This document shows, in pieces, positions 1-16,849 of a stretch of DNA of 64,000 nucleotides. A program made the translations under genes and the position numbers. The stretch is from a virus (Duplodnaviria > Caudoviricetes). The notes below the pieces were generated by a model. The model saw nothing but the letters and a program-made list of their open reading frames with translations. It searched no databases and had not been told where the DNA came from. Where the stretch lies: IMG/VR virus record IMGVR_UViG_3300017691_000006, positions 12,751-76,750 of that record. The stretch is one strand, 5' to 3'. Numbering within the stretch: position 1 is the first letter of the stretch; every line of letters begins with the position of its first letter.

Positions 1-61
1 GGCGCGAGGTCGTGCGGAGCACGTAGCCCATATCGAAGGGCGGCGGAGTATCTTCTGCCAT
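1..61 (-). CDS. 5' end of a gene running off the left edge (MAEDTPPPFDMGYVLRTTSR...), by position probably a tail assembly chaperone
   Basis: ATG at 61-59 preceded by AGGA; follows tail tube gene and tRNA; truncated by window. Confidence 0.4.
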   Translation of the reverse strand, partial: MAEDTPPPFDMGYVLRTTSR

Positions 62-78
62 GATTTCCTGTGTGATGT

Positions 79-152
79 TGGCGAGTCGGCCAGGTGTCGA
101 ACCTGGGTCGTCGGTTTTGGAGACCGATGCTCTACCGTTGAGCTACCTACCC
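79..152 (-). tRNA. tRNA-Trp (anticodon CCA), with encoded 3' CCA
   Basis: Reverse complement folds as a cloverleaf: GGGTAGG/CCGACTC acceptor stem (one mismatch), D arm GCTC-AACGGTA-GAGC, anticodon arm TCGGT-CTCCAAA-ACCGA, T arm CCAGG-TTCGACA-CCTGG, ends GCCA. Confidence 0.93.
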
Positions 153-187
153 GAGGGTGGGAGGGACCGGAGCCCCTCCCGTGAGCC

Positions 188-790
188 TTAGCTCGTGAAC
201 GGGCCGAAGAACGAGCCCTGCATCGACAGCGTGAGCGCCGCCGTGTTGGCGTCGGTCAGCTGCGGGTTGACCTGCAGCGCCTCGACCTTGCCGACCCAGA
301 AGAACTGCGAGTTCTGCGTGGTGCCGAGACCAGTCGAGCTCGACGCGAACGCCGTCGCGGTGGTGCCGGTGGGCGGCGAGTTCAGGAGCGAGAAGCGGAA
401 CACGCGCGAGACGGCGTCGTTGACCATCGGCGCGAGCAGCTGACCGGCGACGTCCTTCGCCCAGTCGGCAGCGATGTAGTTCAGCGTCAGCTCCAGCGAG
501 GGAGCGTCGGCCTGGCCCTGAATCTGCGACGAGGTCGCCTGACCGTAGGCCGGGACGTTGACGATGTTCGCGGGTACGCCCATCGCGGGGAACTCGCGGA
601 CGTTCTTCACGCGGATGAACGCGCCGGCAGCGCGGGTGCCGCCCGTGGTGTTGATCTCCGAGGCGAAGAGCGCCTGGAAAGCAGCCGCCGTGTTGAGCGC
701 TGCGAGGGCGGTCGGCGTGAGCTCGGCCACCGGGGTTGCGATGGACAGGTCCGAGTAGTTACCCGAACCGATCGAAGCGATATGTGCCAT
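188..790 (-). CDS. major tail tube protein
   Basis: 200 aa, beta-rich; segment RVKNVREFPAMGVPANIVNVPAYGQ...QIQGQADAPSLELTLNY resembles siphovirus tail tube proteins; synteny after neck genes. Confidence 0.75.
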   Translation of the reverse strand: MAHIASIGSGNYSDLSIATPVAELTPTALAALNTAAAFQALFASEINTTGGTRAAGAFIRVKNVREFPAMGVPANIVNVPAYGQATSSQIQGQADAPSLELTLNYIAADWAKDVAGQLLAPMVNDAVSRVFRFSLLNSPPTGTTATAFASSSTGLGTTQNSQFFWVGKVEALQVNPQLTDANTAALTLSMQGSFFGPFTS

Positions 791-791
791 T

Positions 792-1203
792 CTAGTTACT
801 TACTCCGTAGAGGTTGAAAGGTACCGTGTACTGAGACCGGGTGAGGGAGGGGTTCGCCTTGTCGGCGCCTCTCCCCTGCAGCGTGGAGCCCTTGAACTCC
901 AAGCTGAGTCCTGCTGACAGCTGCACCGTCTTGAAGTGCATGTACTTGTCCAGGACGTCGGCGATAGCGAGGGCTCGGGCTGGACCCTCACCGTCGGCCG
1001 TGTAGATGTCTAAGATACAGATGCCAGATACGGAGACCTTGTTCAGCCCCTTCGCCGAGGGGATGACAGATACGCGTACGTACTCCTTGCTCGCCCTGTC
1101 CGGGACAACGTCCTGGGGGAAGGCGGGAATGTTCTCGGCCAGCCACGGGGCTGATCCGAAGATGGAGTTGACGGCGTCCTGCGCCTGCGTGTAGCGACCC
1201 AAC
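792..1203 (-). CDS. putative tail terminator / tail completion protein
   Basis: Synteny just upstream of tail tube; likely TTG start at 1203 after GGAGG (ORF track extends to 1238); YVRVSVIP...GICILDIYT pattern. Confidence 0.6.
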
Positions 1204-1557
1204 CTACGCCTCCCTGAACAGCTTGACCATCCAGACACGTCCGGACTCGTGCAGCCTTTCGCCGAGCTTCCAGTCGAAGCCCTCGAACTTGACGCTGTCG
1301 TACGAGTTCAGGTCGCCGACCTCGGAAGCCTTGAGCAGCACGGTCTTGACGATCGTGTTGGTGCCCTTGGCAGGCTTCTCGGTCTCGACGACGACCAGCT
1401 TGACGGCGATGGGGGCGAGCGACGTTGACGTCGTCTTGCCCGCGTTCCAGTCGAAGCCGGTGGACGTGCGCTTGGTGAAGGTCGCCTCGACGGCCAGGTC
1501 CTTCACCTTGTTGAAGGCGTTGGACACTTGCTTGTCAATGAGCGACCTGTAGCTCAC
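1204..1557 (-). CDS. putative head closure / head-tail joining protein
   Basis: 117 aa beta-rich protein in the neck gene position between adaptor and terminator. Confidence 0.55.
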   Translation of the reverse strand: MSYRSLIDKQVSNAFNKVKDLAVEATFTKRTSTGFDWNAGKTTSTSLAPIAVKLVVVETEKPAKGTNTIVKTVLLKASEVGDLNSYDSVKFEGFDWKLGERLHESGRVWMVKLFREA

Positions 1558-2030
1558 CAGGCTCTCCAGACTGTGCGACCGCCGCCGTTGCGCAGCAGGG
1601 GTCGCAGGTTACGCTTGACCTGGGACGGGATCACCGAGGCGTTCCTCAGCTTCTTCAGCAGGATCGGGCCGAGGCTCAGGTCCTCGACCGTACCCGTGTC
1701 GTCCAGCAGGCCGTCGTTGTTCAGCAGGTGGTAGGCCAGCTCGCAGGTGGCGTTCGCAACCCTGTCCGGGATGCTGTCCGTGCGGACGAGCCTTCCTAGG
1801 CGGGGGTCGAAGAACACCACGCGGCGGGGCCACGCTAGGGACTGGGTCTCCGAGACGGCGTACCCCTCCCACTCCAGGGAGTCCAGCAGCAGGGTGGCCG
1901 TAGCCAAGGCCCTGGAACGCTGGTCCTCCGACGCCTCCTCCCAAGCGGCAGCGTCGAGCCGCAGCGCGAAGTACGCCACAGCATCGGCGACCGTCACGTA
2001 GGTGTTGGTGCCCTTGGTCAGGGTAGCCAT
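1554..2030 (-). CDS. head-tail adaptor (DnaT-like phage family)
   Basis: N-terminal TNTYVTVADAVAYF...AW...RALATAT motif typical of this family; directly downstream of major capsid gene. Confidence 0.7.
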   Translation of the reverse strand: MATLTKGTNTYVTVADAVAYFALRLDAAAWEEASEDQRSRALATATLLLDSLEWEGYAVSETQSLAWPRRVVFFDPRLGRLVRTDSIPDRVANATCELAYHLLNNDGLLDDTGTVEDLSLGPILLKKLRNASVIPSQVKRNLRPLLRNGGGRTVWRAW

Positions 2031-2043
2031 GTCTCAGGCCTCC

Positions 2044-3231
2044 TTACGCGTGGAAGATCGGCAGGATGCCCAGCTGGAGAGCCGAGTTGGTCTTGCGCTG
2101 CCACACGCCGCGAACGTTCGCGATGTTGGCGTCGACCATGTTCACGGCCTTGCGGAGCGTGCCGGCGTCCATGACCGAGGCGTAGTCCGCGTCGGACGGG
2201 AAAGCCTCTTCCGGGCCAGCCCAGGTGTAGCCAGCCGGGTGAGCCACGTAGCCCCAGCGATGCCAGATCTCGGCGACGCCGGTACCCTTGTACGACGCCT
2301 CACGGTTGTCCACGCCGACCGGGTTCGGGATCGCCAGCTGCTCCATGGCGATCGCGCCGGGGAGGATGACGTACGAGACGTACTGGCCGACGAGGTCGAC
2401 GCCGGCGCCAACGTTGATCTTGGTGATCTCCGCCGGGCTGAGGTCCATGCTCGTGCGGGTCATGAGCAAGCGGAACTTGCCCTGGAAGATCGTGGTGAAC
2501 TCGATGTTGCCGTCCACGACCTTGTCCTGGTCGACGAGGTTCGCCGAGCGCAGCGACGCCATGACCGCGGGGTCGATGACGAGGTACAGGTACTCGGGCT
2601 CGTAGTCCTTCCAGGCCATGCCGACTGCCTTCAGGAAGGCCTCCGCGCGCTGTGCGCCCTGCGAAGTGGTCGTGGGAGCGCCGACCATCTGGGCAGCACC
2701 CAGGTCGACGTAGAAGCCGTAGCGGCGGTCGGTCGGGTCGTTGTAGAAGGTCTGACCGCCCAGGCCGGTCTGGCCCGAGCCGGTGGCGGTACCGTTGAGC
2801 AGCTCCGAGATGGCGACGCCCTTGAGGATCGAGCGGACGGCCGAGTCCTCGTCGAGGGCGCGGTGCTCACCGAACGACTTGCCCATCTGGACGAGGTCGT
2901 CGGTCTTCGTGATCAGCTCGGTCAGGTTGCGCTTCTTCGCGCCCCAGGTGCGGACCGTCTTGATGTACTGCGAGTAGTCGCTGGAGAAGTCGTTGTACGC
3001 GCCGTCCGAGGCGTCGGTGATCGACGCGACGTTGATGACGGGGTTCATCGGCTTGAACCAGCGCATCTGACCGACGAACGTCTCCGTGTTCTTGTCGATC
3101 ATGGGGTTGCCGCCCACGATCGCCGTGGTCGACAGTCGCTTGGCGTTGGTGTACGCCTCATCGCTGTACGCGGTGAGGGTCTCCTGCAGGACGAAGTTCG
3201 TCGCGCCTGCCGGGATTACGGGTGCGGGCAT
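2044..3231 (-). CDS. major capsid protein
   Basis: 395 aa, strongly biased codon usage, follows scaffold gene, precedes neck genes. Confidence 0.8.
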   Translation of the reverse strand: MPAPVIPAGATNFVLQETLTAYSDEAYTNAKRLSTTAIVGGNPMIDKNTETFVGQMRWFKPMNPVINVASITDASDGAYNDFSSDYSQYIKTVRTWGAKKRNLTELITKTDDLVQMGKSFGEHRALDEDSAVRSILKGVAISELLNGTATGSGQTGLGGQTFYNDPTDRRYGFYVDLGAAQMVGAPTTTSQGAQRAEAFLKAVGMAWKDYEPEYLYLVIDPAVMASLRSANLVDQDKVVDGNIEFTTIFQGKFRLLMTRTSMDLSPAEITKINVGAGVDLVGQYVSYVILPGAIAMEQLAIPNPVGVDNREASYKGTGVAEIWHRWGYVAHPAGYTWAGPEEAFPSDADYASVMDAGTLRKAVNMVDANIANVRGVWQRKTNSALQLGILPIFHA

Positions 3232-3246
3232 TCAGTTGTCCTTGTG

Positions 3247-3939
3247 TTATCCGCGCGCGGGCTTGCCGGCGAGGATGTTGCGCATGACCTCGGAAGGGTC
3301 GACGTCGAAGATTGACTTGGGCTTCTGCTGGGTACCCGGTGCCGGGTTCAGCGGGGCGTCTCCGCCCGTGCCGGTGGAACGCTTCGGCTTGAGGAGGAAC
3401 TGGTTGTCCGCGTCCTCGAAGAACGCCTTGGCGTGGTCGGCGATGCTCTTACCCTCGCGGGATACCCAGACACCGTTGGCGTCCTTGACCAGGTCAGTGG
3501 TGATGTCCTTGACGGCCATCGCGCGTGCCTTGGCGTTCCGGAACTCGTAGGTCGCGAGCGCGTCGCTCACGTCACGGTCACGGGTCAGGCCCACGTTCGC
3601 CTTGGTAAGCTCCTTCATCTGATTCTGGAGGTCCTCCAGCTCTCGTGCGTGAGCTTCCTTTTCCTGTCCTGCGTCGCGGAGACGCGCGGTCTCTCGGTCT
3701 CGCTCCAGCTTCTCCAGCTCCTTCGTGCGGGCCTCGGCCGCGTCCTTCGCCTCGTAGGCGGAGTTCAGACGCGCCTTGATCGGAGCCAACGCTGCGGCGA
3801 CTGCCTTCTCGATGTCGGTGCGGTTGTCTTCCGCCGGCTCGATCGGGGTGCCGTCCTCGTTCTTCGTGGGGTCGAAGTCCGGGTTGTCGATCATCTGGCC
3901 CTCGTTGTCGGGGTCCGGAATCTGCTTGGGGTTCGGCAT
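3247..3939 (-). CDS. capsid scaffolding protein
   Basis: Acidic Pro-rich N-terminus, long coiled coil, Gly/Thr C-terminal STGTGG; probable ATG at 3939 after AGAGGA (ORF track starts at 4047). Confidence 0.7.
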   Translation of the reverse strand: MPNPKQIPDPDNEGQMIDNPDFDPTKNEDGTPIEPAEDNRTDIEKAVAAALAPIKARLNSAYEAKDAAEARTKELEKLERDRETARLRDAGQEKEAHARELEDLQNQMKELTKANVGLTRDRDVSDALATYEFRNAKARAMAVKDITTDLVKDANGVWVSREGKSIADHAKAFFEDADNQFLLKPKRSTGTGGDAPLNPAPGTQQKPKSIFDVDPSEVMRNILAGKPARG

Positions 3940-4051
3940 TGTTGGTATCTTCCTCTGAGCACAGCTCAATTGCGGCAGGGGCCACAGACCTCTACCAAAT
4001 GGAATGTCGGTGTGGGCCGCTGGGAGTACAACTCCTTTACAGCCCATACCT

Positions 4052-4071
4052 GGGTTAATTCAACGGGTTGG
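4052..4071 (-). promoter_or_regulatory. class A conserved motif, copy 1 (CCAACCCGTTGAATTAACCC)
   Basis: 20-bp motif repeated 6 times with one variable base; here immediately after the MuF-RNAP stop and upstream of scaffold/capsid. Confidence 0.8.
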
Positions 4072-4073
4072 CG

Positions 4074-7000
4074 TCAACCTACCCCGTACCATCCGTAATT
4101 CTGCTCGAAGTCGTAAGGGACCTCCTCCCTCACGTCGTCTTGCGTCAGGATGTCGTCCTCCGTCATCACCTTGCCGCCGACCACGGACCTGCCCGCAACG
4201 GGTATCAGGCCAGTGTCGATAGCTTCATCTAAGTACCTCTGGTATATCTCCTCGGGCAGTCCGCGACCCTTCATCTCGTCCAGGGTCATCTTTACCACGT
4301 TCTTGTCCAGCGTCTCTGCGTAAATCTCTCGGAGAGCCGAGCGACCGGGCAGCAGGTCGGCGATGTTGGTGAAGAACGCGTCGTGGATGGTGCTCGTGGC
4401 TACGCCCACGCGCTTGCCCCACTGGTGGAACTTCTTCACGATCACGGCGTCGTTGGAGTGGTTACCGTTCACGGCGAAGGCGGTGCGTGCCTTCGTGGGG
4501 TCGGCGATGTCGTTGATGGTACCAGCCTTGTTAAGGGTCTGGTCCCACCAGCTGGCCTCGGACTTCTGCGGGATCATCAGGATGTTGGTGACCCAGTTAC
4601 CCTCCTTGTCCTTGTAGACCAGTCTCTCCTCGAACGTCTGGGTGAAGTTCTGCTCGATCACCTTGCCGTCGAAGTTGACCCACGGGGCTCGAGTCCAGCT
4701 GCCCGGGACGGCGTTCTTGTCCTTGTACAGCACGTTGACCTCGGTCGCCTTCGTCAGGTCCTTGAGGGCCGTGATGCCGGTGTACTTCTCCAAGATGTCC
4801 GGGGCGTACCCCAGGTCCAGCTTGAAGAGCCGCTTACCCACGGTCCTGGTCTCGGGAGCCTGGGTGCCGTGCAGCAGCGTGTACAGCCCGGAGTCGGGCT
4901 TCCAGTCGTAGAAGTACTTCTCCAGCAGCTGCTCGGTCAGCGGGGTGCGCGCTGGCAGCCCCAGCATCTTGGACACGGCTGGAGGCAGGGTGTAACCCTT
5001 CTTGTAGTCACCTCGCAGGGCGAAGGAGGCCACGGACTTCCAGTCCAGCTCCGCGTTCGACGGCTTGGCGTTCCCGAGGAACTCGCCGGCCAGTCGCCCG
5101 AAGAAGCGGGTGAAGTCCTTGAGGATGGGGACCTGCTCCGCCAGGTGCTCGCTCATGATCTTGGCGATGCCCTGGAAGTCGGCGGGGGTCACGATCCGCT
5201 CGTACTGCTGGCTCAGCTTGTCCACGAGGTCGCGGGTGGCCGGGTCCAGGAAGTACAGCTGCTCCATGATCTCGTCGCCGGGGTCCTGCCCCTTGTTGAA
5301 GATGTCGCGCACGTTGGCACGCAGACCTCGGAGCTTCTCAGCACCGTCCGCGTCGTAGCGCTCCACCCTGGCGATGCGGGCGTCTATCTCGTTGAGCACC
5401 TTCTGCCGGTCGGAGGCGGTGACCACCAGCGTTCCGGAGTCCTTGCCCAGCACCTTGCCGAGCTTGCCCTCTACGTTGAGGATGCCCGTCTTCTCGCCCG
5501 CGCCGTAGAACGTGACCATGTTCTGTGCCTTAGCGGCCTTCTGCAGGTCCTTGAGCTTGAGGCCCAGCTTCTCGTTCAGCACCTTGAAGCGAGGGTCGTT
5601 GTAGGTGGCTGCCGCGATCTCGTCGTACAGGCGTCGCTTCTGCGTCGTCGGCACCACGTTGGACAGCGAGGCCAGCTGCTTGTTCCTCGTCGTGAGGGCG
5701 ATGATCTGTGCCCCCGAGGACGAGGCGTCCTGCTCCATGGCTAGCGCGGTCATGTAGTCGTCCAGCTTGTACAGGTTCGACTTCTCGAAGTTGCCGCGCA
5801 GGTGCTTGTTGAGCTTGGCCATCTCGATGGCGAACCGGAAGAACTTGCCCAGCTCCTCGCCGTCCACCTCGGCCACCACCGGGCTCTCCAGCACGAAGCG
5901 GAGGTCCGACGGCTTGGAGGAGATCATGGCCTCGCCTATCTCCACCAGCTCCGCCCTCCAGGCCTCGGCGATCCGCTGGCGACCCACGAAGGTGAGGCCG
6001 TCGTGGCGTCCCTCGAAGTAGTCGCTGAGGCCACCGAGGAAGGAGCCGATCTGGTCGGTGAGGGCGTAGTAGCCGTCCACCCCCAGGGGCTTCTCCACCG
6101 AGGTGTTGAGGAACGGGCGGAAGCTCTCGCCCGACTGCGGGCTGATGAGGCCACGGTCGTAGACGCGGGCGCGGTGGTCGATGAACGGGTGGTTGCTGAA
6201 CGCGACCTCCCTGCCCCTCAGCCACTGCATGGACTTGAACCGCTCGTAGGCGTCGCCGCGCGACGTGATGTACTTGCGGTAGTGGTTGAGCTCGTCGTAC
6301 TTCTTCGCGCTACCGCGGTCGTCGCGGAAGTACAGCAGCTTCTCGATGAAGTCGTAGAAGTCGGGGTCGATCTTGTACTGGGTCTGAGCGGCCCAGTTGA
6401 GCGCGTCCGACAGGCTCTTGTCCACGAACTCGACGGGGAAGTCGGAGAACGAGGAGGTCGAGGTGATCGGGATGCGGGTGTCGTAGTAGCCCAGCCCCTT
6501 CTTCACGAAGTAGGTCTTGTACCCCTCGCGCACCAGCAGCCGGTTGGACTCGTCGGTGACGGCCACGCGCAGCCCGAGCTCGATCTTGCGGTTGAGCTTG
6601 GAGTACTCTAGGATACGCGGGTCCACGACCTTGATGTAGTACGACAGCGTGTCGTAGTACGGGCCGAAGTAGGCTCCCGAGAGACGAGAGCGCATCCGTC
6701 GCTTCTGGACGGCGAACGCGTCGATCTCGAACAGGTGGCCGGCGTTCTTCTCCAGCAGCTTGAGCCCCAGGTTGTACCACTCCTTCCGCGTGCCGTTCAT
6801 GTTGGCGGCGTTGAAGAGGTCGCGACCCAGGGAGACGGCGACGCTGTCCCGGTCGGGGCTGTCTGCCATGCCCAGCCGCTGGGCGAACCGCTGGTAGAAC
6901 TCGCTGATCTGCTGCTCGGTCAGTCGGCTCCTGATCTTCTTGGGGATGTTCAGGTCGAGGATGTCACGGAGCTCGTTGGCGAGCTTGGGTGCCATGCTGT

Positions 7001-8744
7001 CGTCCCAGAGGTTCTTCCTCACGATGTTCGGGATGAAGTCTCGGGCCAGCTCGTCCAGCTGCGTCTCGCCCAGCACGGGGTCCACGTAGGCGTCCTTGGT
7101 CAGCTTGCGCAGCACGTCCTTGTCCTTGCGCAGCTGCGTCTCGATCGCGTCCGAGATGTTCATCACGTCGAACTTGATCTGGCTGTTCAGGACCGCCTTG
7201 AGGTTGCCCCAGGGCTCGCCGTTCCTGCGGAAGCGACCGATAGTGACGCGGAGGTTCTCGACCACCACGGCTCGCTCGTTCATGCCCATCTTTAGGGCCA
7301 GCGAGTCGTCCAGCTGGTTGATGAACTCCTTGTCCTGCTTGAGCAGGTCCGTGCTCTCGTCCACGCGCCTGAGGGCGCCCATGTAGACGTCCTGGTTGGG
7401 CTGGTAGACGCGCACGTCGTCGTAGCGCTGCGTCAGCGGGTTGTAGCGACGCTGGTCCTCGGTCGGAGGGGTCGTCAGCACCCGGTTGCGGGTGTTGCGC
7501 TTGTTGTGCAGCAGCGTGCCACGGTAAGAGGTGATGGACAGGTTGCCGTTCAGGTCGCCCGCCTGCAGGAGGTAGTAGTCCTGGAGCGTCTTCTGCATCC
7601 GGTACAGGTCCTCCGGCATGGAGGCTCCCAGCTGCATCGCGTCGAGGCGGGCCTTGGCGTTGGCGAACTTGCGGGTGTCGCCGGGGATGACGTAGTCGCT
7701 GTCGGTGAGCTGCCTGAGCTCCTTGATGCCGAGCGAGTTGCCCTCCGGGTTCGTGAACTTGTCTACGGTGAGCTCGCCCGAGTTGAGCATGCCCACCTGC
7801 TTGTAGTCGCCTAGGTGCCTGAGCTGAACGTCCAGCGGCTGTCGGAGCAGCCAGTCGTTGTAGCTCTCCCTGAGAGGGGTCTGCCCGTCGTAGAACGCCT
7901 TCTGGGCGTCCGTCAGGCCGTTGAGGTTGCGCCGACGCACCTCGCCGAGGCCCTCCAGCTTGCCGACGTCCTCCCAGCTCTTGAACACCGGGACAGTAGT
8001 GCTCCGGCAGTTCCAGTGAGCCGGAGGTAGGTGAGAGACATCACCGACAGGGTATATCTGACCGTCTCGGTGGGCGCAGATAGGGGTGGTACGGGAGTCG
8101 AGCACAGCCACGTACTGGTAGCCATCGATAGCCTTCGCGTTGGCCTCGTACACGGCGTGGTCTGCCTGCGCGTGCACCGAGGTGACGGCGGTCACGACCA
8201 AGGCCCTGGACTGCAGGCGCGTGATCTTGTTGACGTTGTTGCGGCGCAGGTCCAGCGCCATCTGCTCTACCGTGTCGCCGCGAGCGATGCCTGCCCGGAT
8301 GAGCAGGTCGATACGCTTGCGCTCGTTGGCGGAAACGTTCGACCACCCCGAAGCCAGGGTGGTCTCTCCGTAGAGCGGTCGCTCCAGCACGATCTCCTCC
8401 GCCACGCGGCGTACGGGTCGCTGGGTGCGCCATATCTTGCCCATCGTGTTCTCGACGGACTGGTAGGCGAAGGAGAGCTGGTCGGACACGAGGTCCAGCA
8501 GCGAGCGGCGCGACAGGGAGAAAGTCTCCTCGTGCGTGCGCATCAGCTCCTGGTCCACGGCCTCCCGCAAGCGCAGGAGACCCTTGGTGGAGGTCTCCGC
8601 GCCCCGGACCAGCTCGTCCAGCCGCTCCTCGTGGCCGTCAAGCACCAGGCTCACCTTGCCGTTCACACGCCGCTCGTACAGCCGTACCATGGCCGCGCGG
8701 TCGACGATCTTGTCGTAAAGTTGAGTGTTGGCGTTGTCGGCCAT
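4074..8744 (-). CDS. MuF/SPP1-gp7-like head morphogenesis domain fused to a T7-like single-subunit RNA polymerase (putative virion RNAP)
   Basis: MuF signature GYQYVAVLDSRTTPIC...PPAHWNCRST near aa 205-250; RNAP motifs IDHRARVY, EQDASSSGAQ (A), KAQNMVTFYG (B), HSNDA and TIHDAF (C); lies between portal and scaffold. Confidence 0.9.
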   Translation of the reverse strand: MADNANTQLYDKIVDRAAMVRLYERRVNGKVSLVLDGHEERLDELVRGAETSTKGLLRLREAVDQELMRTHEETFSLSRRSLLDLVSDQLSFAYQSVENTMGKIWRTQRPVRRVAEEIVLERPLYGETTLASGWSNVSANERKRIDLLIRAGIARGDTVEQMALDLRRNNVNKITRLQSRALVVTAVTSVHAQADHAVYEANAKAIDGYQYVAVLDSRTTPICAHRDGQIYPVGDVSHLPPAHWNCRSTTVPVFKSWEDVGKLEGLGEVRRRNLNGLTDAQKAFYDGQTPLRESYNDWLLRQPLDVQLRHLGDYKQVGMLNSGELTVDKFTNPEGNSLGIKELRQLTDSDYVIPGDTRKFANAKARLDAMQLGASMPEDLYRMQKTLQDYYLLQAGDLNGNLSITSYRGTLLHNKRNTRNRVLTTPPTEDQRRYNPLTQRYDDVRVYQPNQDVYMGALRRVDESTDLLKQDKEFINQLDDSLALKMGMNERAVVVENLRVTIGRFRRNGEPWGNLKAVLNSQIKFDVMNISDAIETQLRKDKDVLRKLTKDAYVDPVLGETQLDELARDFIPNIVRKNLWDDSMAPKLANELRDILDLNIPKKIRSRLTEQQISEFYQRFAQRLGMADSPDRDSVAVSLGRDLFNAANMNGTRKEWYNLGLKLLEKNAGHLFEIDAFAVQKRRMRSRLSGAYFGPYYDTLSYYIKVVDPRILEYSKLNRKIELGLRVAVTDESNRLLVREGYKTYFVKKGLGYYDTRIPITSTSSFSDFPVEFVDKSLSDALNWAAQTQYKIDPDFYDFIEKLLYFRDDRGSAKKYDELNHYRKYITSRGDAYERFKSMQWLRGREVAFSNHPFIDHRARVYDRGLISPQSGESFRPFLNTSVEKPLGVDGYYALTDQIGSFLGGLSDYFEGRHDGLTFVGRQRIAEAWRAELVEIGEAMISSKPSDLRFVLESPVVAEVDGEELGKFFRFAIEMAKLNKHLRGNFEKSNLYKLDDYMTALAMEQDASSSGAQIIALTTRNKQLASLSNVVPTTQKRRLYDEIAAATYNDPRFKVLNEKLGLKLKDLQKAAKAQNMVTFYGAGEKTGILNVEGKLGKVLGKDSGTLVVTASDRQKVLNEIDARIARVERYDADGAEKLRGLRANVRDIFNKGQDPGDEIMEQLYFLDPATRDLVDKLSQQYERIVTPADFQGIAKIMSEHLAEQVPILKDFTRFFGRLAGEFLGNAKPSNAELDWKSVASFALRGDYKKGYTLPPAVSKMLGLPARTPLTEQLLEKYFYDWKPDSGLYTLLHGTQAPETRTVGKRLFKLDLGYAPDILEKYTGITALKDLTKATEVNVLYKDKNAVPGSWTRAPWVNFDGKVIEQNFTQTFEERLVYKDKEGNWVTNILMIPQKSEASWWDQTLNKAGTINDIADPTKARTAFAVNGNHSNDAVIVKKFHQWGKRVGVATSTIHDAFFTNIADLLPGRSALREIYAETLDKNVVKMTLDEMKGRGLPEEIYQRYLDEAIDTGLIPVAGRSVVGGKVMTEDDILTQDDVREEVPYDFEQNYGWYGVG

Positions 8745-8771
8745 CGTTCTAGTCGTCCTTGGTTGGGAGCC

Positions 8772-9059
8772 TCACAGCTGCGAGCTCCTGTGTGCGTAGG
8801 CCTCCAGACCCCACAGCTTGCGCATGGCGTCGTCCCGAGCGAACTTCTCGCCCACGGCCTTGTCGAAGTTCTCCACGCTGATGCAGGCGCTCTCGCCCGT
8901 CACCGTGAAGCCGTTGCGCGTGGTCAGCACGCAGATGGTGAGCGTCTTGTACACGTGGAAGTACGTGTCCACGATCGCGGCCTCGACGTCGGCCAGCGTG
9001 ATGCGCTTGGCGACGGCGACCGATGCGGCGAGCTCCTCGCCTGCCTGTAACGTGCTCAT
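8772..9059 (-). CDS. phage Gp49/gp66-family protein
   Basis: LTICVLTTRNGFTVTGESACIS.ENFD.AVGEKFA.DDA..KLWGLEAY is the characteristic family pattern. Confidence 0.8.
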   Translation of the reverse strand: MSTLQAGEELAASVAVAKRITLADVEAAIVDTYFHVYKTLTICVLTTRNGFTVTGESACISVENFDKAVGEKFARDDAMRKLWGLEAYAHRSSQL

Positions 9060-9496
9060 GCCTGCTTGTCCTCCTTAGCTGGCGAATGGAAACCGATCAC
9101 CCCCTTCCCGTTGTCCGCAGACTTCTTGACTACCGAATAACCGAGCTCGCGCATGGCGTGCTCAACGATGTGGTCCAGCAAGTAGGCCTCAGCCTCCATA
9201 CTCGGGTTCTGCTCGCCGATGGTGCGCCAGATGAGCTGCACCGCGTGCATGCTCTCGTGAGCGATCACCGCCGCCGGGCAGACGTCCTCGTCCTCGTGCA
9301 TGTCCTCCGGGAAGGCCAGGAGCACGTAGGTGCCCTCCGGCGTCCCGTAGAAGACGGTGGTGGCGTAGCTGTCCTCGAGAGGGTTAGCCACGGGTAGGTC
9401 GTTCTTCCGCTGGAAGCGCTTGATGGCGGCGGGCGAGTCGGTCACGCCGACCAGCACCGGATACATCAGCCCCTTCAGCCAGGCTATCTTGTTCAT
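9056..9496 (-). CDS. small HExxH putative zinc metallopeptidase-like protein
   Basis: VIAHESMHAV followed by EAEAY; paralogous to 60528..60881. Confidence 0.55.
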   Translation of the reverse strand: MNKIAWLKGLMYPVLVGVTDSPAAIKRFQRKNDLPVANPLEDSYATTVFYGTPEGTYVLLAFPEDMHEDEDVCPAAVIAHESMHAVQLIWRTIGEQNPSMEAEAYLLDHIVEHAMRELGYSVVKKSADNGKGVIGFHSPAKEDKQA

Positions 9497-11184
9497 TTCG
9501 GTGGTGGCTTCTTGTCCTTAGACTTGTCCCCGCCCTGGAGCTTGGACTTCATCTGGGTTGCGAAGTTGTCCTGCTGCTGGTCGTTCTGCTCGCGCAGCCC
9601 CACGACCGTCTCGTCCGCGTTGATCTCCTTCTGACCCTCCTCGTCGTTGTAGTCGGGGGCCAGCATGTCGTTCTGCTTCAGGATGAGCAGCCACGCCGTG
9701 CGGGGGATCAAACCGTTCTGGTACCACTCGGTCGCCAGCCTCAGCCAGTCCGCGCCCTGCGGCACGGGGTTGAAGTCTGAAGACAGCTCGAAGTCGATCT
9801 CCGAGGGCTTGAGCTCCAAGTCGTAGTGCCAGTTCACCATGAAGCAGATGACCGCCCGCATGGTGTTGGAGACCTTGGTGTTCAGGGCACCCAGCTGTGC
9901 CGTCTGCGTCGCGTTCCTCAGCTCCAGCGCCACGCCAGACTGGTCGCCCGTCTCCGGGGCCAGCATGCGCACGCCTAGCTTCGCGATCTCCTCGTAACCG
10001 GCGGCGATCGCCAGCTCCATGTCCTTGAGCGCCTCGGTGGGCGTCTTGAGGACGTCTGCCGTGTCGCCCTGCTCCAGGTGGAGCCAGGTGCCGAGACCGC
10101 CCTCCACGACCTCGTCGAACTTATCGTCGGACATGTTCGAGGAGATGACGGGCGTGTAGGTCGCCGCGCCGTACATGAGGTGGTTGCGGCGGGAGATCTT
10201 GTTGTAGAGCGCGATCTCCTTGTTCACGATCGCCATGAGCATGGGCTCGTCGCGGTCGATGGAGCCGTTCAGGGGCCAGGCGGGGATGATGTCGATCTCC
10301 TCGTCCCTGATCTTGACCGGGACGGTGTCGACCAGCTGGAAGACCGGCTCTCCGCCGAACTTGACCTGCTTCTGCCCGCCGACGATCTCCACCGAGTCGG
10401 TGCTGTCGTCGACCTTGAAGATGCGCACGCGGTACTTGCCCCGCTGGTCCAGCTCGTGGACCCACACGGTGGGCACGTACTTGGGGTGGAACTCGTGCTT
10501 GTCGTTGTCGTAGACCTCGGTGTGGCCCTTGACGATGACGCGGTCCAGCACGGTCCTGCCCTTGGCGTCGGTGCGGGTGCGCGTGTTGATGACGCTCTCG
10601 CCCGCCACCAGGACGGGGTACGGCCTGGGCTCCTCGCCCTCCTCGTACTCCTCGTCCTCGCCGACCTTGGGGTAGTCCACGAACAGCCAGGGAGCGGAGG
10701 TCTGCACCTCCTCCCACAGGGCGTCGTCCAGGAAGGCTGACAGCGCGCTGTCGTCCTTGCCGAACTCGTGGATGATCCAGCGGGCGGCGTCCTCCTGCTG
10801 CTCCTGCGGCATCGAGTCCGGGAACTTGATCGTGGGCTGCTTGCGCAGGAGACCGCCGACCAAGGTCTTGGCGAACTGGGAGGTGATGCCGGGCAGCTCA
10901 GCCTCGGCCTTGTAGAAGGCGTACTGGTCCTGCCGCATGGAGGGCGAGAAGGGGATCAGCAGGTTGGTGAAGCCCACCGTGTCCAGGTGAGAGTCGTAGT
11001 CCTTGACAAACTGCTCGCCCCTGCACACGGCCCTGCTCTTGCGCCACACGCCCACCAGGGACGCGTAGGCGGCGGAGGGGTCGGCCACCGTCTTCACCGT
11101 CTCGTGGGCGTTCGACGTCACCGCCGTCGCCTGGCGAGGTGCGAAGCCAGCGCCCTTTAGGCTCTCGTAGGTGGCCTCGTCCAC
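9493..11184 (-). CDS. portal protein (DUF4055-type)
   Basis: 563 aa between terminase cluster and MuF/scaffold/capsid; TGDQSGVALELR motif typical of portals. Confidence 0.8.
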   Translation of the reverse strand: MDEATYESLKGAGFAPRQATAVTSNAHETVKTVADPSAAYASLVGVWRKSRAVCRGEQFVKDYDSHLDTVGFTNLLIPFSPSMRQDQYAFYKAEAELPGITSQFAKTLVGGLLRKQPTIKFPDSMPQEQQEDAARWIIHEFGKDDSALSAFLDDALWEEVQTSAPWLFVDYPKVGEDEEYEEGEEPRPYPVLVAGESVINTRTRTDAKGRTVLDRVIVKGHTEVYDNDKHEFHPKYVPTVWVHELDQRGKYRVRIFKVDDSTDSVEIVGGQKQVKFGGEPVFQLVDTVPVKIRDEEIDIIPAWPLNGSIDRDEPMLMAIVNKEIALYNKISRRNHLMYGAATYTPVISSNMSDDKFDEVVEGGLGTWLHLEQGDTADVLKTPTEALKDMELAIAAGYEEIAKLGVRMLAPETGDQSGVALELRNATQTAQLGALNTKVSNTMRAVICFMVNWHYDLELKPSEIDFELSSDFNPVPQGADWLRLATEWYQNGLIPRTAWLLILKQNDMLAPDYNDEEGQKEINADETVVGLREQNDQQQDNFATQMKSKLQGGDKSKDKKPPPK

Positions 11185-11187
11185 GGG

Positions 11188-11385
11188 TTAGCCCCGGAGG
11201 CGCGCGTTGAACTCTGCGCGCGTGCCCTCGAAGGTCTCGCGGGTCGAGTAGTTGGTACCCACGATCGTGTCGGGGTCGTCCTCGTGCTCGACCAGCGACC
11301 AGTCGCTCGGGCAGCGGCCCTTGAACTGCTCCACCGGCGTCTGCTCGGGGGTAACGGTCTCGGTCTTGTCGAAGATGTCGGCCAT
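11188..11385 (-). CDS. hypothetical protein
   Basis: 65 aa, RBS AAGGA upstream, typical codon bias. Confidence 0.6.
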   Translation of the reverse strand: MADIFDKTETVTPEQTPVEQFKGRCPSDWSLVEHEDDPDTIVGTNYSTRETFEGTRAEFNARLRG

Positions 11386-11400
11386 GGTATTCTTTCCTTG

Positions 11401-12639
11401 TTATGCGAAGAGTATCGTACCGACCAGCAGCGAGGCCGTGGCGGGTAGGGCGGTGTTGTCCAGGTCGGCGGGCAGGGTCGTCACGGCGTAGGTGATGCCC
11501 GTGCTGAACGCGAACCCGTACTGGTCGAAGATGTCCGCGAAGTTCACGAACCCACCGGCGGGGATGGGCAGCTGGAACAGCGGGACCGTGGTACCGAGGG
11601 TGACGCCGCCCGTTGAGGTCGCGTTGAAGAACTTCATGTACAGCGGGGCGGTGTGCGTGTTGTGGACTATGCCTCCCACGATGCGCCCGATGCTGGACTT
11701 GATGTTGTTCAGGTTCGTCGTGCTCGCGACCGTGTTGACCTTGTGGTACTGGCTGCCGTTGCTGCCCGTGGTCACGCGCGCGTCGGTGACGTTGACGTTC
11801 GTGTTGCCGCCGACCACGTTGACGGGAACGCTGGCGGCGCCGGAGGAGTTGCCTCGGCCACCGCCCACCTCGACCTGCAGCTCCTGCACGTCCATCGACA
11901 GGATGCGCTGTACGGTCAGCTGCGCGTTGGTGGTCGCCGCCGTGTTGCGCACCCAGATGAAGGGAGCGTAGCGCTTGGCGTGCGAGGGCACCATGCTGTT
12001 GATGCGGCCCACGTTGGCCGACCGTGCACCGCCGCTGTTCGCGGGGTTGTGCGAGTAGACCACGTCCTCGGGCCTGACCTCGATGGCCGACTCGATGTTG
12101 CCGTTCGAGCCGTTCTGACCTCCGAAGTTGACCTGGGTGCTGGTGGGGTTGCCTCCCGACAGCGTCTCCAGGATCGTGTTCGTGGTCGACGTGCCGTTGA
12201 GCAGCATCGCGCAGAAGTTGTTCGGGAAGTTCGTCAGGTTCGGGTTGGCGACCATGTTGCCCGCCGCGTCCACCTCCAGGTAGCCCATGCGGACCTCCTG
12301 GTTGGCGTTCCTCGCAGACAGCGACCAGGTGATGGTCAGGTTCTGCGGGATGGTGCAGATGTGCCTGCCGACCAGCAGCATCTCGTTGCCCGAGGCTGTG
12401 CCGGTGTTGATCAGCAGGGCGGAGCCGGTCTCCTGGATGGTGACGGAGCCCACGTTGCGGACCACGTTCCAGTTCTCGGCGATGGCAGCCAGGGTGGCCG
12501 CTCCGGCCGCGAGGTTGGGGCCCGAGAAGCCGTCGCTCCACTTGGTCATGGTCGTGCCGATCTGCGTGACCCGGCTCAGGTCGGGCAGCTGGACGGTGGA
12601 GTCGAGAGCCAGCCCGCCCAGGATGTTAACTAGGCTCAT
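11401..12639 (-). CDS. putative virion fibre/decoration protein, beta-rich
   Basis: 412 aa rich in G/N/T/S/V and poor in charged residues; in the late operon. Confidence 0.5.
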   Translation of the reverse strand: MSLVNILGGLALDSTVQLPDLSRVTQIGTTMTKWSDGFSGPNLAAGAATLAAIAENWNVVRNVGSVTIQETGSALLINTGTASGNEMLLVGRHICTIPQNLTITWSLSARNANQEVRMGYLEVDAAGNMVANPNLTNFPNNFCAMLLNGTSTTNTILETLSGGNPTSTQVNFGGQNGSNGNIESAIEVRPEDVVYSHNPANSGGARSANVGRINSMVPSHAKRYAPFIWVRNTAATTNAQLTVQRILSMDVQELQVEVGGGRGNSSGAASVPVNVVGGNTNVNVTDARVTTGSNGSQYHKVNTVASTTNLNNIKSSIGRIVGGIVHNTHTAPLYMKFFNATSTGGVTLGTTVPLFQLPIPAGGFVNFADIFDQYGFAFSTGITYAVTTLPADLDNTALPATASLLVGTILFA

Positions 12640-12640
12640 G

Positions 12641-12847
12641 TCAGTTGCCGTCCTCTATCCAGATGGTTACCTTGCCCGCCTGCCCGTCCACGTTGGTCTG
12701 GATCCACAGGTAGGGCTGCGTCTGCCCGGTGGGCTGCGCGTCGCTGATGAACACGTTGTTCAGCAGCTTGAAGTTGGCGTCGAGCTCGCCGAAGGTCAGC
12801 GGACCTCCCTTCGTGGCCCGTAGCGTGGGGTACTGTGCTAGTGCCAT
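12641..12847 (-). CDS. small putative virion protein with fibre N-terminal-like motif
   Basis: LRATKGGPLTFGELDANF resembles the LRxxKGxPLTxxExDxNF motif at the start of many phage fibre proteins. Confidence 0.5.
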   Translation of the reverse strand: MALAQYPTLRATKGGPLTFGELDANFKLLNNVFISDAQPTGQTQPYLWIQTNVDGQAGKVTIWIEDGN

Positions 12848-12850
12848 GCG

Positions 12851-13048
12851 TCAGGTGCTCGCGTAGTTGTTGGGGAGCCAGTAGTTGAAGCCCACGTACA
12901 GCGCGTTGTTGGGGGCCGGCCTGTCCCAGAAGCCGTTCTCCGTGTGGTAGCCGCCCTCCTCCACGTCGGGTGCGACGGTCACCGCCAGCGGCGTGGGGAA
13001 GCCGTAGGTCTCCAGCGGCTCGGGCGATCCCTTGGTCTTGATCGCCAC
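12851..13048 (-). CDS. hypothetical protein (late operon)
   Basis: 65 aa ORF with typical codon bias. Confidence 0.55.
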   Translation of the reverse strand: MAIKTKGSPEPLETYGFPTPLAVTVAPDVEEGGYHTENGFWDRPAPNNALYVGFNYWLPNNYAST

Positions 13049-13051
13049 GGC

Positions 13052-13636
13052 TCAGGTCACGCCGTCGGTGGGCGAGAACTGCAGCTCCACCATGCCTCGC
13101 ACCGGCTTCCAGGTCTGCTGGTACGCGCCGAGGGTCTCGGAGCAGCGCAGCTCGAAGAAGCCGTACACGTGGTTGGCGGTGGAGGGCTTCTGCGCCCAGT
13201 CGCTCCCCAGCGCCGAGGGGAAGCGTACGTAGATGCGCTGCAGCGTCGTGGGTCGCCACAGGTTGGGCAGCGAGGTGGGCGGCGTCGTGGACTGGTACTG
13301 CGCGCCCTGGTAGAGCTCGTAGTAGCCTCCCTGGTACGCCACCAGGTCTCCCCTGCTGTAGTTGGTGGTGCCCGACCAGTTGCCCATGTTCGGGGGAACT
13401 CGGGTGGTCAGCACGGTGGTCTTGCCCCCAGCCAGCACGTTGCCGGGAGGGGAGTCCTGGTTGGCCACGTTCTGAGCCTCCACGACCACGGCCCTCAGCG
13501 TCAGCTGCGCGGCGTCGTTGTAGAAGTTCAGGTCGACCGGGTACTCGATCTGCTCGCCCTTGACGAAGGAGAACAGGACCGAGCCGGCGTCCGTGATCGG
13601 GTCCAGGCTGGGGTCCGTTATCTTAGCTCGCGCCAT
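13052..13636 (-). CDS. putative virion protein with a CBM5/12-like carbohydrate-binding motif
   Basis: WSGTTNYSRGDLVAYQGGYYEL matches the W..Y..GD.V.Y.G..Y pattern. Confidence 0.55.
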   Translation of the reverse strand: MARAKITDPSLDPITDAGSVLFSFVKGEQIEYPVDLNFYNDAAQLTLRAVVVEAQNVANQDSPPGNVLAGGKTTVLTTRVPPNMGNWSGTTNYSRGDLVAYQGGYYELYQGAQYQSTTPPTSLPNLWRPTTLQRIYVRFPSALGSDWAQKPSTANHVYGFFELRCSETLGAYQQTWKPVRGMVELQFSPTDGVT

Positions 13637-14033
13637 AGGCCCTCACCACGTTGTTGATGTCCAGGCCGGTGTGCGACCCGTCCACCCTCTGCTCGGCCTC
13701 GTGTTGGCGTCGCTTGATGGCGTTCGTGTGCTCCAGCGTGAAGTCGTAGATCAGGAGCACCATCTGCGCCCCCAGGTCCACGAGGTTGCCGTTCATGAGC
13801 CTGACCGGGTGCGACCAGGTCTTGCTGTCACCGGCTCTGATGGCGCCCACCGCTCCCCGGTACAGGTCGAGCTGACCCTCCCTGTCCAGGCATATGTCCC
13901 CGTAGGGGGAGTCGTAGGAGCCGTAGGTCTGCGTCAGGAAGTGCGCCCTGAGGCGGGCCTTAGCGTCAGCTCGGAGCATGGGCAGGTCGTCCAGCTCCGG
14001 GAATAGGCTGTACTGCATCTCACCTCCTGTCAC
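13623..14033 (-). CDS. hypothetical protein
   Basis: 136 aa GTG-start ORF filling the gap; typical codon bias. Confidence 0.55.
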   Translation of the reverse strand: MTGGEMQYSLFPELDDLPMLRADAKARLRAHFLTQTYGSYDSPYGDICLDREGQLDLYRGAVGAIRAGDSKTWSHPVRLMNGNLVDLGAQMVLLIYDFTLEHTNAIKRRQHEAEQRVDGSHTGLDINNVVRAYGAS

Positions 14034-14034
14034 T

Positions 14035-14361
14035 TTACTTGTCCTGCTTCTTGTCCAGCTTCCCGTCGATGCGCTCGAGGGTGGTGGCCACGCCGGCGAA
14101 CAGCTCCTTGAGCTCCGCCTTGGTGACGTACTGCTTCGCGAGCAGGACCTCCAGCGAGGAGAGGCGTGCCAGCTGGGCCAGCACCTCGTCCTGTGCCTTG
14201 TCGATCGTCGTCTTGGGCACGTATGTCTGGGCGACGTGGAGCTCGAGCTTGTCGACCTTCTCCTTCGTCGCCCTCAGGTCGGCCCACACCGTCTTGACCC
14301 ACCAGCTGAGCATGGTGATCACGATGGTGAGGACCAGACCGAGTACTTTCTCTAGGTCCAT
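14035..14361 (-). CDS. single-TM coiled-coil protein (MDLEKVLGLVLTIV...)
   Basis: ATG at 14361 overlaps terL stop (ATGA); N-terminal hydrophobic helix; internally repeated xxxYVxK motif. Confidence 0.65.
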   Translation of the reverse strand: MDLEKVLGLVLTIVITMLSWWVKTVWADLRATKEKVDKLELHVAQTYVPKTTIDKAQDEVLAQLARLSSLEVLLAKQYVTKAELKELFAGVATTLERIDGKLDKKQDK

Positions 14362-15716: not shown

Positions 15717-15717
15717 C

Positions 15718-15819
15718 TCAGTCGCTCGCGAACAGCAGGTACAGCAGGAACACCAGCAGGGCCAGCGGGTAGTGGGTGAACAGCATGCAGAACAGCACGA
15801 CCATGAGCACCGTGTCCAT
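15718..15819 (-). CDS. 33-aa hydrophobic micropeptide (MDTVLMVVLFCMLF...)
   Basis: ATG at 15819 after GAGGA; almost entirely hydrophobic. Confidence 0.5.
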   Translation of the reverse strand: MDTVLMVVLFCMLFTHYPLALLVFLLYLLFASD

Positions 15820-15953
15820 TACTCTATATCCTCTTGTATGTGGTTGTCCAGCGGGACGTAGAGCACGTCGTCGTCCCTGAGCTGGAAGGGGTAGCAGTCG
15901 CGAGGGGCGTCGGCCACGGGCACCCAGCAGGTACCCTCCAGCGCGTAGGTCAT
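15819..15953 (-). CDS. 44-aa hypothetical protein (MTYALEGTCW...)
   Basis: ATG overlaps stop of upstream gene (ATGA) after GGAGG; below the ORF-track cutoff. Confidence 0.5.
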   Translation of the reverse strand: MTYALEGTCWVPVADAPRDCYPFQLRDDDVLYVPLDNHIQEDIE

Positions 15954-16390: not shown

Positions 16391-16698
16391 GGCTACACCT
16401 CTGAGACTGCGGGCACAAAACTCCTTGAGAGCGCATCCCCGCTGTGTTAGTATCGTTAATCTAACGGCCTCGGTGCAAGCCGCGTGTGGCTGACCCCAGC
16501 GTGCGGTCCCGTCGCTCTCCTCCCTATGTACGATCCGTGGACCCTCTCGGGTACGATCCCTCAGCGAGAGGGTGCTGACCCAGGGTACCCTCCCCTAGCC
16601 TCCTCTATCAGTATATAGATATATTATATATTTGTTATACCCTATACCTACCCTACCCAGAGGGGGATAGAGGGGCCTTACGGCCGGGAGGCGGCTCA

Positions 16699-16718: not shown

Positions 16719-16765
16719 GCCCTAAGGCGCGAGGTTGACAGTGCGTTGCTCTGAGGTATATAGCC

Positions 16766-16845: not shown

Positions 16846-16849
16846 GAGG

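Follow-up and report, generated by a model that had tools for sequence, protein, structure and literature searches.

A MuF head protein joined to a T7-type RNA polymerase in a large family of tailed phages, and a candidate two-polymerase transcription relay

A single open reading frame matches both MuF head proteins and RNA polymerases

The DNA analysed here is a 64,000-nucleotide (nt) stretch, referred to below as the window, of the tailed-phage record IMGVR_UViG_3300017691_000006. It comprises bases 12751-76750 of this 76,750-bp IMG/VR record, which is judged 97% complete, and the gene of interest is an open reading frame (ORF) of 1556 amino acids (aa) in which a MuF-type minor head protein is joined to a single-subunit RNA polymerase (RNAP). 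An earlier note on this DNA, made from the sequence letters and a list of translated ORFs, had described an uninterrupted 1556-aa ORF at window positions 4074-8744; the ORF was recovered as described, has an ATG start, and lies on the minus strand, which the note had not given. Its GC content is 0.92 at third codon positions (GC3) against 0.38 at second codon positions (GC2), the coding signature for a genome of 63% GC. The MuF signature YVAVLDSRTTPIC...PPAHWNCRST was located at aa 211-249 of the translated ORF and the polymerase motifs DASSSG, KAQNMVTFYG, HSNDA and TIHDAF at aa 1006-1011, 1072-1081, 1429-1433 and 1452-1457, respectively, so that all of the motifs quoted in the note are present. 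The gene and its parts are as follows.

4074-8744, minus strand: MuF-RNAP fusion gene (P0001), a single ORF with PF04233 and PF00940 matches above their cut-offs and full-length homologues in at least 419 clusters
7701-8744, minus strand: MuF/SPP1-gp7-type part (aa 1-348), consisting of a long helical hairpin and then the MuF core (phrog_241, Pfam and structure model)
7065-7700, minus strand: flexible linker (aa 349-359) and helical domain without a family (aa 360-560), from AlphaFold models
4077-7064, minus strand: complete single-subunit RNAP module (aa 561-1556), from VIA-align, Foldseek and conserved residues

Pfam domain calls on the fusion protein were judged against the curated cut-offs. 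Phage_Mu_F (PF04233) matched aa 145-250 (E 3.7e-15; 57.1 bits against a cut-off of 29.6) over profile positions 3-111 of 112, and RNA_pol (PF00940) matched in the C-terminal half (E 1.5e-7; 31.1 bits against a cut-off of 22). Among PHROGs, the head morphogenesis family phrog_241 was matched over aa 1-347 (E 9e-64) and the RNAP family phrog_414 at E 1e-19, with no N4-type PHROG among the matches of the protein. The domain mapping that the note had called for therefore gives an N-terminus matching MuF profiles and a C-terminal half matching RNAP profiles. A phmmer search of PDB sequences returned only T7 RNAP, weakly (E 0.05), in an alignment that spans the T/DxxGR motif and motif C and in which fusion D1455 aligns with T7 D812, and D856/R860 with T7 D421/R425. 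In the fusion, the catalytic residues are D1006 in motif A, K1072 and Y1080 in motif B, D1455 in motif C and D856/R860 in T/DxxGR, together with H1429/D1432; for motifs A and B, we take T7 residues D537, K631 and Y639 to be the counterparts of D1006, K1072 and Y1080. With every catalytic residue present, the polymerase part is apparently active.

The predicted polymerase fold is closest to T7 and mitochondrial enzymes

Alignments of 30 family members were the input for two AlphaFold models of the fusion. In the N-terminal model (aa 1-560; predicted local distance difference test score (pLDDT) 86.8), a long helical hairpin and the MuF core are followed, after a disordered break at aa 349-359, by a separate helical domain that extends to approximately aa 550. 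Compared with the PDB, this model gave no match at E 0.001 or better. The helical domain (aa 360-560), which lies outside the structural alignment with T7 RNAP, had no match in Pfam, PHROG, Atlas or PDB, the Atlas feature search having been run on aa 345-565.

The C-terminal model (aa 400-1556; pLDDT 80.5, predicted template modelling score (pTM) 0.75) was matched by Foldseek to T7 RNAP and mitochondrial RNAPs (E 1.7e-17, probability 1.0). VIA-align superimposed fusion aa 561-1556 (model residues 162-1157) on T7 RNAP residues 34-883 with a Z score of 25.9, so that the structure prediction proposed in the note yielded a T7-type right-hand polymerase fold with its N-terminal domain. The corresponding Z scores were 23-25.6 for the yeast and human mitochondrial RNAPs, 15.4 for N4 RNAPII, 14.9 for the N4 mini virion RNAP (mini-vRNAP; 3c2p) and 12.7 for full N4 gp50 (9pnr). 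According to the models, the fusion polymerase is complete, including its N-terminal domain, and is T7/mitochondrial-like rather than N4-vRNAP-like. Of the approximately 550 aa that had been left unassigned between the MuF signature and the catalytic motifs, only about 210 aa remain without a family, because aa 561-850 form the RNAP N-terminal domain in the structure model. Overall, it is almost certain that the gene encodes one polypeptide consisting of a MuF minor head part and a complete T7/mitochondrial-type RNAP.

The fusion recurs in hundreds of contigs and both domains are conserved

A search for the same architecture, which the note had listed as a check, found it in at least 419 clusters, in 170 IMG/VR stretches and in cultured Naomviridae. 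Using tblastn against public phage genomes, the full architecture was found only in EBPR siphovirus 1, whose homologue shares 54.5% identity with the fusion, and in the Naomviridae roseophages DSS3_VP1 and DSS3_PM1, whose homologues share 31% identity at 92% coverage and are labelled 'head morphogenesis' or 'minor head protein-like'. The metagenomic clusters, defined at 90% identity, were collected by matches to the polymerase part; nearly all of their proteins are 1520-1570 aa long with both Pfam domains, and the contigs that encode them reach 65-90 kb. The fusion is not an assembly artefact, because the architecture of approximately 1540-1560 aa recurs in hundreds of independent contigs. A HMMER pass over 1.84 billion representative proteins gave 157 matches to the RNAP part, every long one of which has an N-terminal extension, and among the 150 matches listed there was no ordinary 800-900-aa T7-like RNAP. 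This polymerase lineage seems, from these sequences, to exist only as the fusion.

The MuF domain was kept in 26 of 26 diverse family members (mean column identity 27%), and PF00940 was matched by 21 of 26 (best E 1e-25). Across 26-30 members (mean column identity 27-28%), polymerase residues D1006, K1072, Y1080, D1455 and R860 vary little or not at all, and MuF residues D216, C223, P240-P241, H243 and C246-R247-S248 are the same in all 26 members compared, at identities as low as 21%. The gene order terminase-portal-fusion-scaffold-capsid is likewise kept in distant members with 24-29% identity. Both domains are genuine and under purifying selection across a large phage family.

In EBPR siphovirus 1 (L001), the fusion gene is split by an insert inside motif B, after KAQNMV (11176-11402 and gp48). 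The insert carries an HNH endonuclease and matches the group I intron model RF00028 with 40.5 bits (E 1e-8), which is below the gathering score. Inteins were considered for the longer relatives of 1626-1775 aa and rejected, as their inserts have neither intein Pfam matches nor intein boundary residues and are loop insertions.

A literature search returned no paper describing a fusion of MuF with a T7-like RNAP, and RNA polymerase is never mentioned in the papers searched on the DSS3_VP1 and DSS3_PM1 phages. In the Naomviridae, the gene is annotated solely as encoding a head protein.

The fusion gene lies in the late head module of a genome that encodes a second polymerase

In a GC3-based gene map, essentially all genes lie on the minus strand. 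The order of transcription runs from small early genes to a 746-aa RNAP, followed by DNA polymerase A, primase/helicase and ribonucleotide reductase genes and by many small genes; it continues through terminase, portal, a 146-aa ORF, a 95-aa ORF, MuF-RNAP, scaffold and major capsid protein, and ends with head-tail adaptor and tail genes, a 3246-aa ORF (outside the window), the tail-tip fibre and lysozyme. On the circular map, the late region carries on into the lysis cassette, which borders the early region. The fusion gene belongs to the late head module, and its product is the sole MuF homologue in the genome. The note had given the order as portal, fusion, scaffold and capsid; the fusion gene is indeed followed by scaffold and capsid, and two small ORFs lie between it and the portal gene. 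No prohead protease was found in Pfam and PHROG scans of the head-module ORFs.

14361-15716, minus strand: terminase large subunit (phrog_2, E 2.5e-32)
9493-11184, minus strand: portal protein, 563 aa (phrog_145, E 2e-51)
8772-9059, minus strand: 95-aa ORF directly upstream of the fusion gene, of the N4 gp49/Sf6 gp66 family (PF13876, E 3.3e-21; phrog_322)
3247-3939, minus strand: scaffolding protein (phrog_206), its start moved to the ATG after a conserved hairpin and ribosome-binding site (RBS)
2044-3231, minus strand: major capsid protein (phrog_247, E 4e-16)
52279-54519, minus strand: RNAP2, a conventional T7-like RNAP of 746 aa at the end of the early region (PF00940, E 4e-66; phrog_414, E 3e-114)

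The family of the 95-aa ORF recalls N4, in which gene 49 adjoins the vRNAP gene 50, a resemblance that may be coincidental.

The second polymerase, RNAP2, is a mainstream T7-family enzyme matched by 2706 phage records. It can be aligned with the fusion only at motifs A and C, and a recent duplication giving rise to the two polymerases was rejected on this ground. RNAP2 is present alongside the fusion in 7 of 7 near-complete relatives and in DSS3_VP1. These seven relatives have GC contents of 35-48%, with RNAP2 identities of 56-64% and fusion identities of 58-65% (G001-G005).

Two conserved motif classes have promoter-like positions

Two strand-specific intergenic motif classes recur in the genome and its relatives, the number of conserved classes being equal to the number of conserved polymerases. 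Class C consists of GCGsAAA, approximately 5 nt and GGTATCTTATATGAT (written as a promoter, GCGsAAA-N5-GGTATCTTATAT) and is present in 4 copies in the window, with 0.00 expected.

60932-60956, minus strand: class C copy 1 (GCGCAAAAACGG-GTATCTTATATGA), where the early region begins, just past the lysis cassette
56326-56350, minus strand: class C copy 2, 1.8 kb upstream of the RNAP2 gene
56137-56161, minus strand: class C copy 3
31020-31044, minus strand: class C copy 4, divergent (GCATCTTATATGA)

Class C was found in 8 of 8 clade genomes (this genome and the seven relatives), approximately 1-6 kb upstream of RNAP2, and its invariant block of 13-14 nt together with the upstream GCGsAAA is kept across phages of 35-63% GC. 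DSS3_VP1 has two copies of a recognisable version, GAAAACTAAGGCATCTATAATGA, approximately 6 kb upstream of its RNAP gene (C-like sequence GGCATCTATAATGA). In 13 of 15 copies, a variable hairpin starts within the last three bases of the motif, comparable to the 5' stem-loops of T7-type transcripts, and the transcript would probably start at the G that follows the motif. Downstream of class C copy 1, at a distance of 11 nt, a strong terminator-like hairpin with a T-run occupies 60900-60921 (minus strand); several relatives have a hairpin of this kind upstream instead, preceding the class C copies ahead of RNAP2. The possibility that class C is an ordinary sigma-70 promoter was weakened by a scan with a relaxed sigma-70 consensus, which flagged no class C site.

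Class B, CCAACCCGTTRAATTAACCC (also written CCCGTTAAATTAACCC), is present in 6 copies in the window, with 0.00 expected; the copies are intergenic and on the coding strand.

4052-4071, minus strand: class B (CCAACCCGTTGAATTAACCC), 3 nt after the fusion stop codon, ahead of scaffold/capsid
16699-16718, minus strand: class B ahead of the terminase/portal/MuF-RNAP block
37439-37458 and 37486-37505, minus strand: class B, a tandem pair ahead of a small-gene block
51586-51605, minus strand: class B just downstream of RNAP2, ahead of the replication genes; this place is kept in G001-G003 and G005
61966-61985, minus strand: class B ahead of the lysis cassette

The 15-nt core of class B occurs in 2-7 copies per genome in five relatives, almost always on the coding strand, and it directly follows the fusion gene in approximately 50 independent contigs. 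A class B site also lies within approximately 1-3 kb after the RNAP2 gene, an arrangement that mirrors T7 gene 1 and the first phage promoters. DSS3_VP1 carries seven copies of the B-like sequence GGGTGCGTTAAAGAGG.

Class B sites differ in what follows the motif, as seen at 61966-62010 and 16699-16745 in the window and at G001:42066, G002:33572, G003:16808/38999/65977, G004:31285 and G005:41846 in relatives. In one sub-type, which mostly heads the lysis and terminase blocks, a C-rich extension (..GCCGCC(C/T)CCC..) follows. In the other sub-type a hairpin follows, and it heads the replication and scaffold blocks. By analogy with T7 class II and class III, the sub-types may be two temporal classes.

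Comparison with known head proteins and virion RNA polymerases

The MuF protein SPP1 gp7 binds the portal, enters the procapsid interior in 1-2 copies and supports the initiation of infection (PMC6316719, PMC5576092), and MuF proteins with C-terminal effectors are known (PMC5512222). Surveys of MuF proteins name cargos of toxin or nuclease type (ADP-ribosyltransferases, RNases, RelA/SpoT), mostly in temperate phages, and no RNA polymerase cargo (PMC5576092, PMC5512222). The fusion resembles SPP1 gp7 in its PF04233 domain, in the position of its gene after the portal gene and in belonging to a head module without a protease in the scans made here; gp7, however, is a single domain with no enzymatic cargo. 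With the MuF polymorphic toxins and 'polyvalent' proteins, it shares the N-terminal MuF domain, the portal-adjacent gene and an enzyme as C-terminal cargo, with packaging and delivery predicted. Its polymerase part finds its best structural match, over nearly the whole enzyme and with the same catalytic motifs, in the T7 and mitochondrial RNAPs. T7 RNAP differs in being a free early protein that is not virion-associated, and the fusion module shares only approximately 13-19% identity with it in structural alignments, is approximately 110 aa longer, and has low-confidence insertions at aa 1233-1347.

Two phages provide the closest functional parallels. For N4, experiments have shown that an injected, late-encoded virion RNAP transcribes the early genes, including that of a second RNAP (PMC4496689, PMC13434306, PMC5512222). 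According to Iyer et al., no phages other than the N4-like ones have virion RNAP modules (PMC5512222). In P23-45, the virion RNAP gp96, which is fused to the tape measure, transcribes the pre-early genes, including that of a second RNAP, gp64; two distinct promoter motifs serve the two phage RNAPs, and the late genes use host RNAP (PMC10770324).

Like the fusion, N4 gp50 is a late-encoded protein with a T7-family polymerase domain, in a genome with a separate early-region RNAP gene. It differs in its size of approximately 3500 aa, in its N-terminal injection and C-terminal encapsidation regions, in the absence of MuF and in coming from a podovirus, whereas the fusion has 1556 aa, a MuF N-terminus, nothing after the polymerase and a fold nearer to T7 (Z 25.9 against 12.7-14.9). 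The fusion belongs to the MuF and single-subunit RNAP families; it is set apart from the N4 gp50 family by differences in size, in flanking regions and in fold proximity, and is not a member of that family. The early promoters of N4 are DNA hairpins. P23-45 is, like the phage studied here, a siphovirus that links an RNAP to a virion structural protein and has a second RNAP and two motif classes; unlike it, P23-45 has two-barrel (cellular-type) RNAPs, and the carrier is a tail tape measure rather than a head/portal protein. By analogy, the fusion probably works like N4 gp50 and P23-45 gp96. The note had proposed a route to a virion RNAP distinct from that of N4, and this stands as regards the carrier, which differs, and the fold, which is nearer to T7; a virion RNAP carried on a siphovirus structural protein is, however, already known from P23-45 (PMC10770324).

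The Naomviridae phages DSS3_VP1 and DSS3_PM1 share with the phage studied here the fusion, synteny, a second RNAP and related motif classes. Naomviridae have uracil DNA (dU-DNA), whereas this genome has no match to the dU-pathway families Dcd (PF00383) and Dtm (PF12917), and a tie between the fusion and uracil DNA was rejected for this reason. Pelagibacter phage Kolga encodes a 633-aa head morphogenesis protein, of which the MuF part of approximately 340 aa was matched, without a polymerase, together with a separate T7-like RNAP. Considered as a natural control lacking the fusion, Kolga is too divergent for a co-occurrence comparison of the kind made for P23-45, neither motif class being recognisable in it.

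Proposed mechanism and alternative explanations

The mechanism that we put forward, and regard as reasonably probable, is one in which packaged MuF-RNAP starts the early genes in a two-polymerase relay. While the procapsid assembles, the MuF part would bind to the portal in the manner of SPP1 gp7, so that each capsid would enclose a few polymerase molecules, and the polymerase would leave the capsid with the DNA at infection. Once injected, it would start at the class C promoters clustered at the head of the early region, with RNAP2 as one early product. RNAP2 would in turn read the class B promoters and so transcribe the replication, packaging, scaffold/capsid and lysis blocks, among them the one with the MuF-RNAP gene itself. 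A relay of this kind would begin without host RNA polymerase. The note had proposed MuF as a packaging and delivery tag for an RNAP that transcribes early genes, and on all points open to sequence analysis the results agree with it.

The first steps draw on precedent: because SPP1 gp7 is portal-bound, enclosed and promotes the start of infection, and because MuF carries effectors elsewhere, the fusion is probably packaged and delivered. A role in early transcription is made more plausible by the presence of RNAP2 and of two promoter-like motif classes in an early-to-late layout, and the favoured assignment, which follows position and analogy, is of class C to MuF-RNAP and of class B to RNAP2. 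More tentatively, a large global siphophage family that includes the cultured Naomviridae may be transcriptionally self-sufficient by way of one or two copies of the MuF-borne polymerase, acting from class C to RNAP2 and then class B. Host RNAP would then never be required, and the family would represent a third independent way of packaging a virion RNAP and the first known case of MuF delivering a template-directed polymerase.

Virion-packaged RNAPs allow a phage to start its programme without the host enzyme. To our knowledge, they are known from few lineages, each with its own means of delivery, namely N4-like phages, crAss-like phages, jumbo phages and Thermus phage P23-45. If the proposed mechanism is true, a MuF-anchored T7-type polymerase would be a new delivery solution in the commonest phage morphotype, and the MuF cargo slot, known for toxins, would be able to take an enzyme of approximately 1000 aa. 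The family is abundant in metagenomes and is labelled only 'head morphogenesis protein', so that its transcription strategy is invisible in databases. Cultured members (DSS3_VP1 and DSS3_PM1 on Ruegeria pomeroyi) make the idea directly testable, with candidate promoters in hand for both polymerases, and two new orthogonal polymerase-promoter pairs could serve as tools.

Several points weigh against the proposed mechanism. The cargo of approximately 1200 aa beyond MuF is far above the size of the toxin cargos in the MuF surveys (PMC5576092, PMC5512222), and the fusion is assumed to pass the siphovirus tail unfolded. Presence in the virion, ejection and activity are predictions, and the pairing of each motif class with a polymerase follows position and analogy. 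The assemblies are circularly permuted, the DNA that enters first could be any part of the genome, and the early region need not adjoin an end. The whole early region has a class B site upstream of it, in front of the lysis genes. Finally, class C ends in TATGAT, which is a perfect TATAAT in DSS3_VP1, and because this end is -10-like, host RNAP, alone or with a phage factor, may read class C.

The last point is the basis of the alternative that survives best, although we consider it unlikely: host RNA polymerase would read class C in the manner of the T7 early promoters, and the packaged MuF-RNAP would serve at entry in another way, such as genome pull-in by transcription, replication priming or transcription of a short pre-early stretch alone. 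Besides the -10-like end of class C, this explanation could draw on two other sigma-70-like sites on the coding strand of the early region and on the placement of RNAP2 like T7 gene 1, the promoters upstream of which are host promoters. However, the 13-14 nt block with its GCGsAAA exceeds a -10 hexamer and is accompanied by no TTGACA-like -35, and the conserved fusion polymerase would be left without a conserved motif class of its own.

Slightly less likely again is a reversal of the assignment, in which MuF-RNAP would read class B at entry and again late, and RNAP2 would read class C. The TATAT tract of class C directly before a G resembles the TATA/+1 G of T7-family promoters, and RNAP2 is the mainstream T7-family enzyme of the two; a class B site lies ahead of the early region in every genome, and the fusion gene is inside a class B unit, which would make self-amplification possible. 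Under such a scheme, however, the replication and late genes would depend on one or two injected molecules until late, and class C is almost confined to the region upstream of the RNAP2 gene and is absent from the structural region. The class B site ahead of the early region can be accounted for by the lysis cassette that it heads.

It is improbable that the fusion is not ejected at all and instead has a late role or a role at the procapsid portal, for example in transcription or pausing coupled to concatemer processing and packaging, or as a tethered late polymerase. The location of its gene in a late-gene unit and the role of T7 RNAP in DNA maturation are compatible with such a function, but delivered cargo is the usual interpretation of MuF fusions, the action of SPP1 gp7 falls at the start of infection, and a free RNAP2 is already available for intracellular transcription. 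That the polymerase part is an inactive relic, acting as a bulky structural or DNA-binding appendage of MuF, is very improbable in spite of its highly divergent sequence (E 0.05 for T7 RNAP in phmmer), as the catalytic residues and surrounding motifs are kept down to approximately 21% identity, the full T7 fold is predicted, and the group I intron-like insert of EBPR siphovirus 1 lies exactly in motif B, an essential active-site segment of the kind that such elements typically target.

Other features of the genome

62921-63985, minus strand: tail-tip fibre (gene map)
60958-61497, minus strand: lysozyme, in the lysis cassette (gene map)
Genome bases 1817-11557 (window -10933 to -1193), minus strand: 3246-aa ORF after the tail genes
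82-152, minus strand: tRNA gene in the tail-gene region (Rfam RF00005, 61.7 bits)

A giant protein is also encoded by DSS3_VP1, as a 'virion structural protein' of approximately 2575 aa that may be compared with the 3246-aa ORF. A megablast search with window positions 1-20000 returned no near-identical phage genome. The assemblies of relatives begin at differing points, consistent with circular permutation. Three independent near-complete assemblies, G004, G006 and G007 (L043, L031 and L063), begin 1-2 kb upstream of the portal gene, and two of these are classed as having direct terminal repeats; their starts may correspond to true genome ends lying between terminase and portal, in which case the early region would be in the middle of the genome.

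A hairpin, UGAG(U/C)UGU(A/G)CUCA, is located directly before the RBS of the scaffold gene (approximately 3956-3968 and 4023-4035, minus strand) in this genome and in G001-G005 (6 of 6), and in some genomes a second hairpin with a UUGUA loop lies upstream of it. The hairpin sequence is essentially unique to this site in each of the six genomes and is a candidate translational operator for scaffold/capsid expression.

A repeat of approximately 50 nt is present in four copies on the minus strand (30261-30284, 55594-55617, 55690-55713 and 58775-58798), ending approximately 24 nt before start codons, and was not found as a repeat in the five relatives. It folds as an H-type pseudoknot (S1 CGUC/GACG, S2 GGCCA/UGGCC) in which 36 of 36 cells pair, two of the pairs with compensatory changes. 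The repeat had been considered as a third promoter class, which was dropped in view of this pairing, and it is a candidate regulatory RNA element of the 5' untranslated region. Lastly, two stretches 443 nt apart, at 26519-26655 and 26962-27098, are 88-89% identical, which suggests a tandem pair of paralogous small genes.

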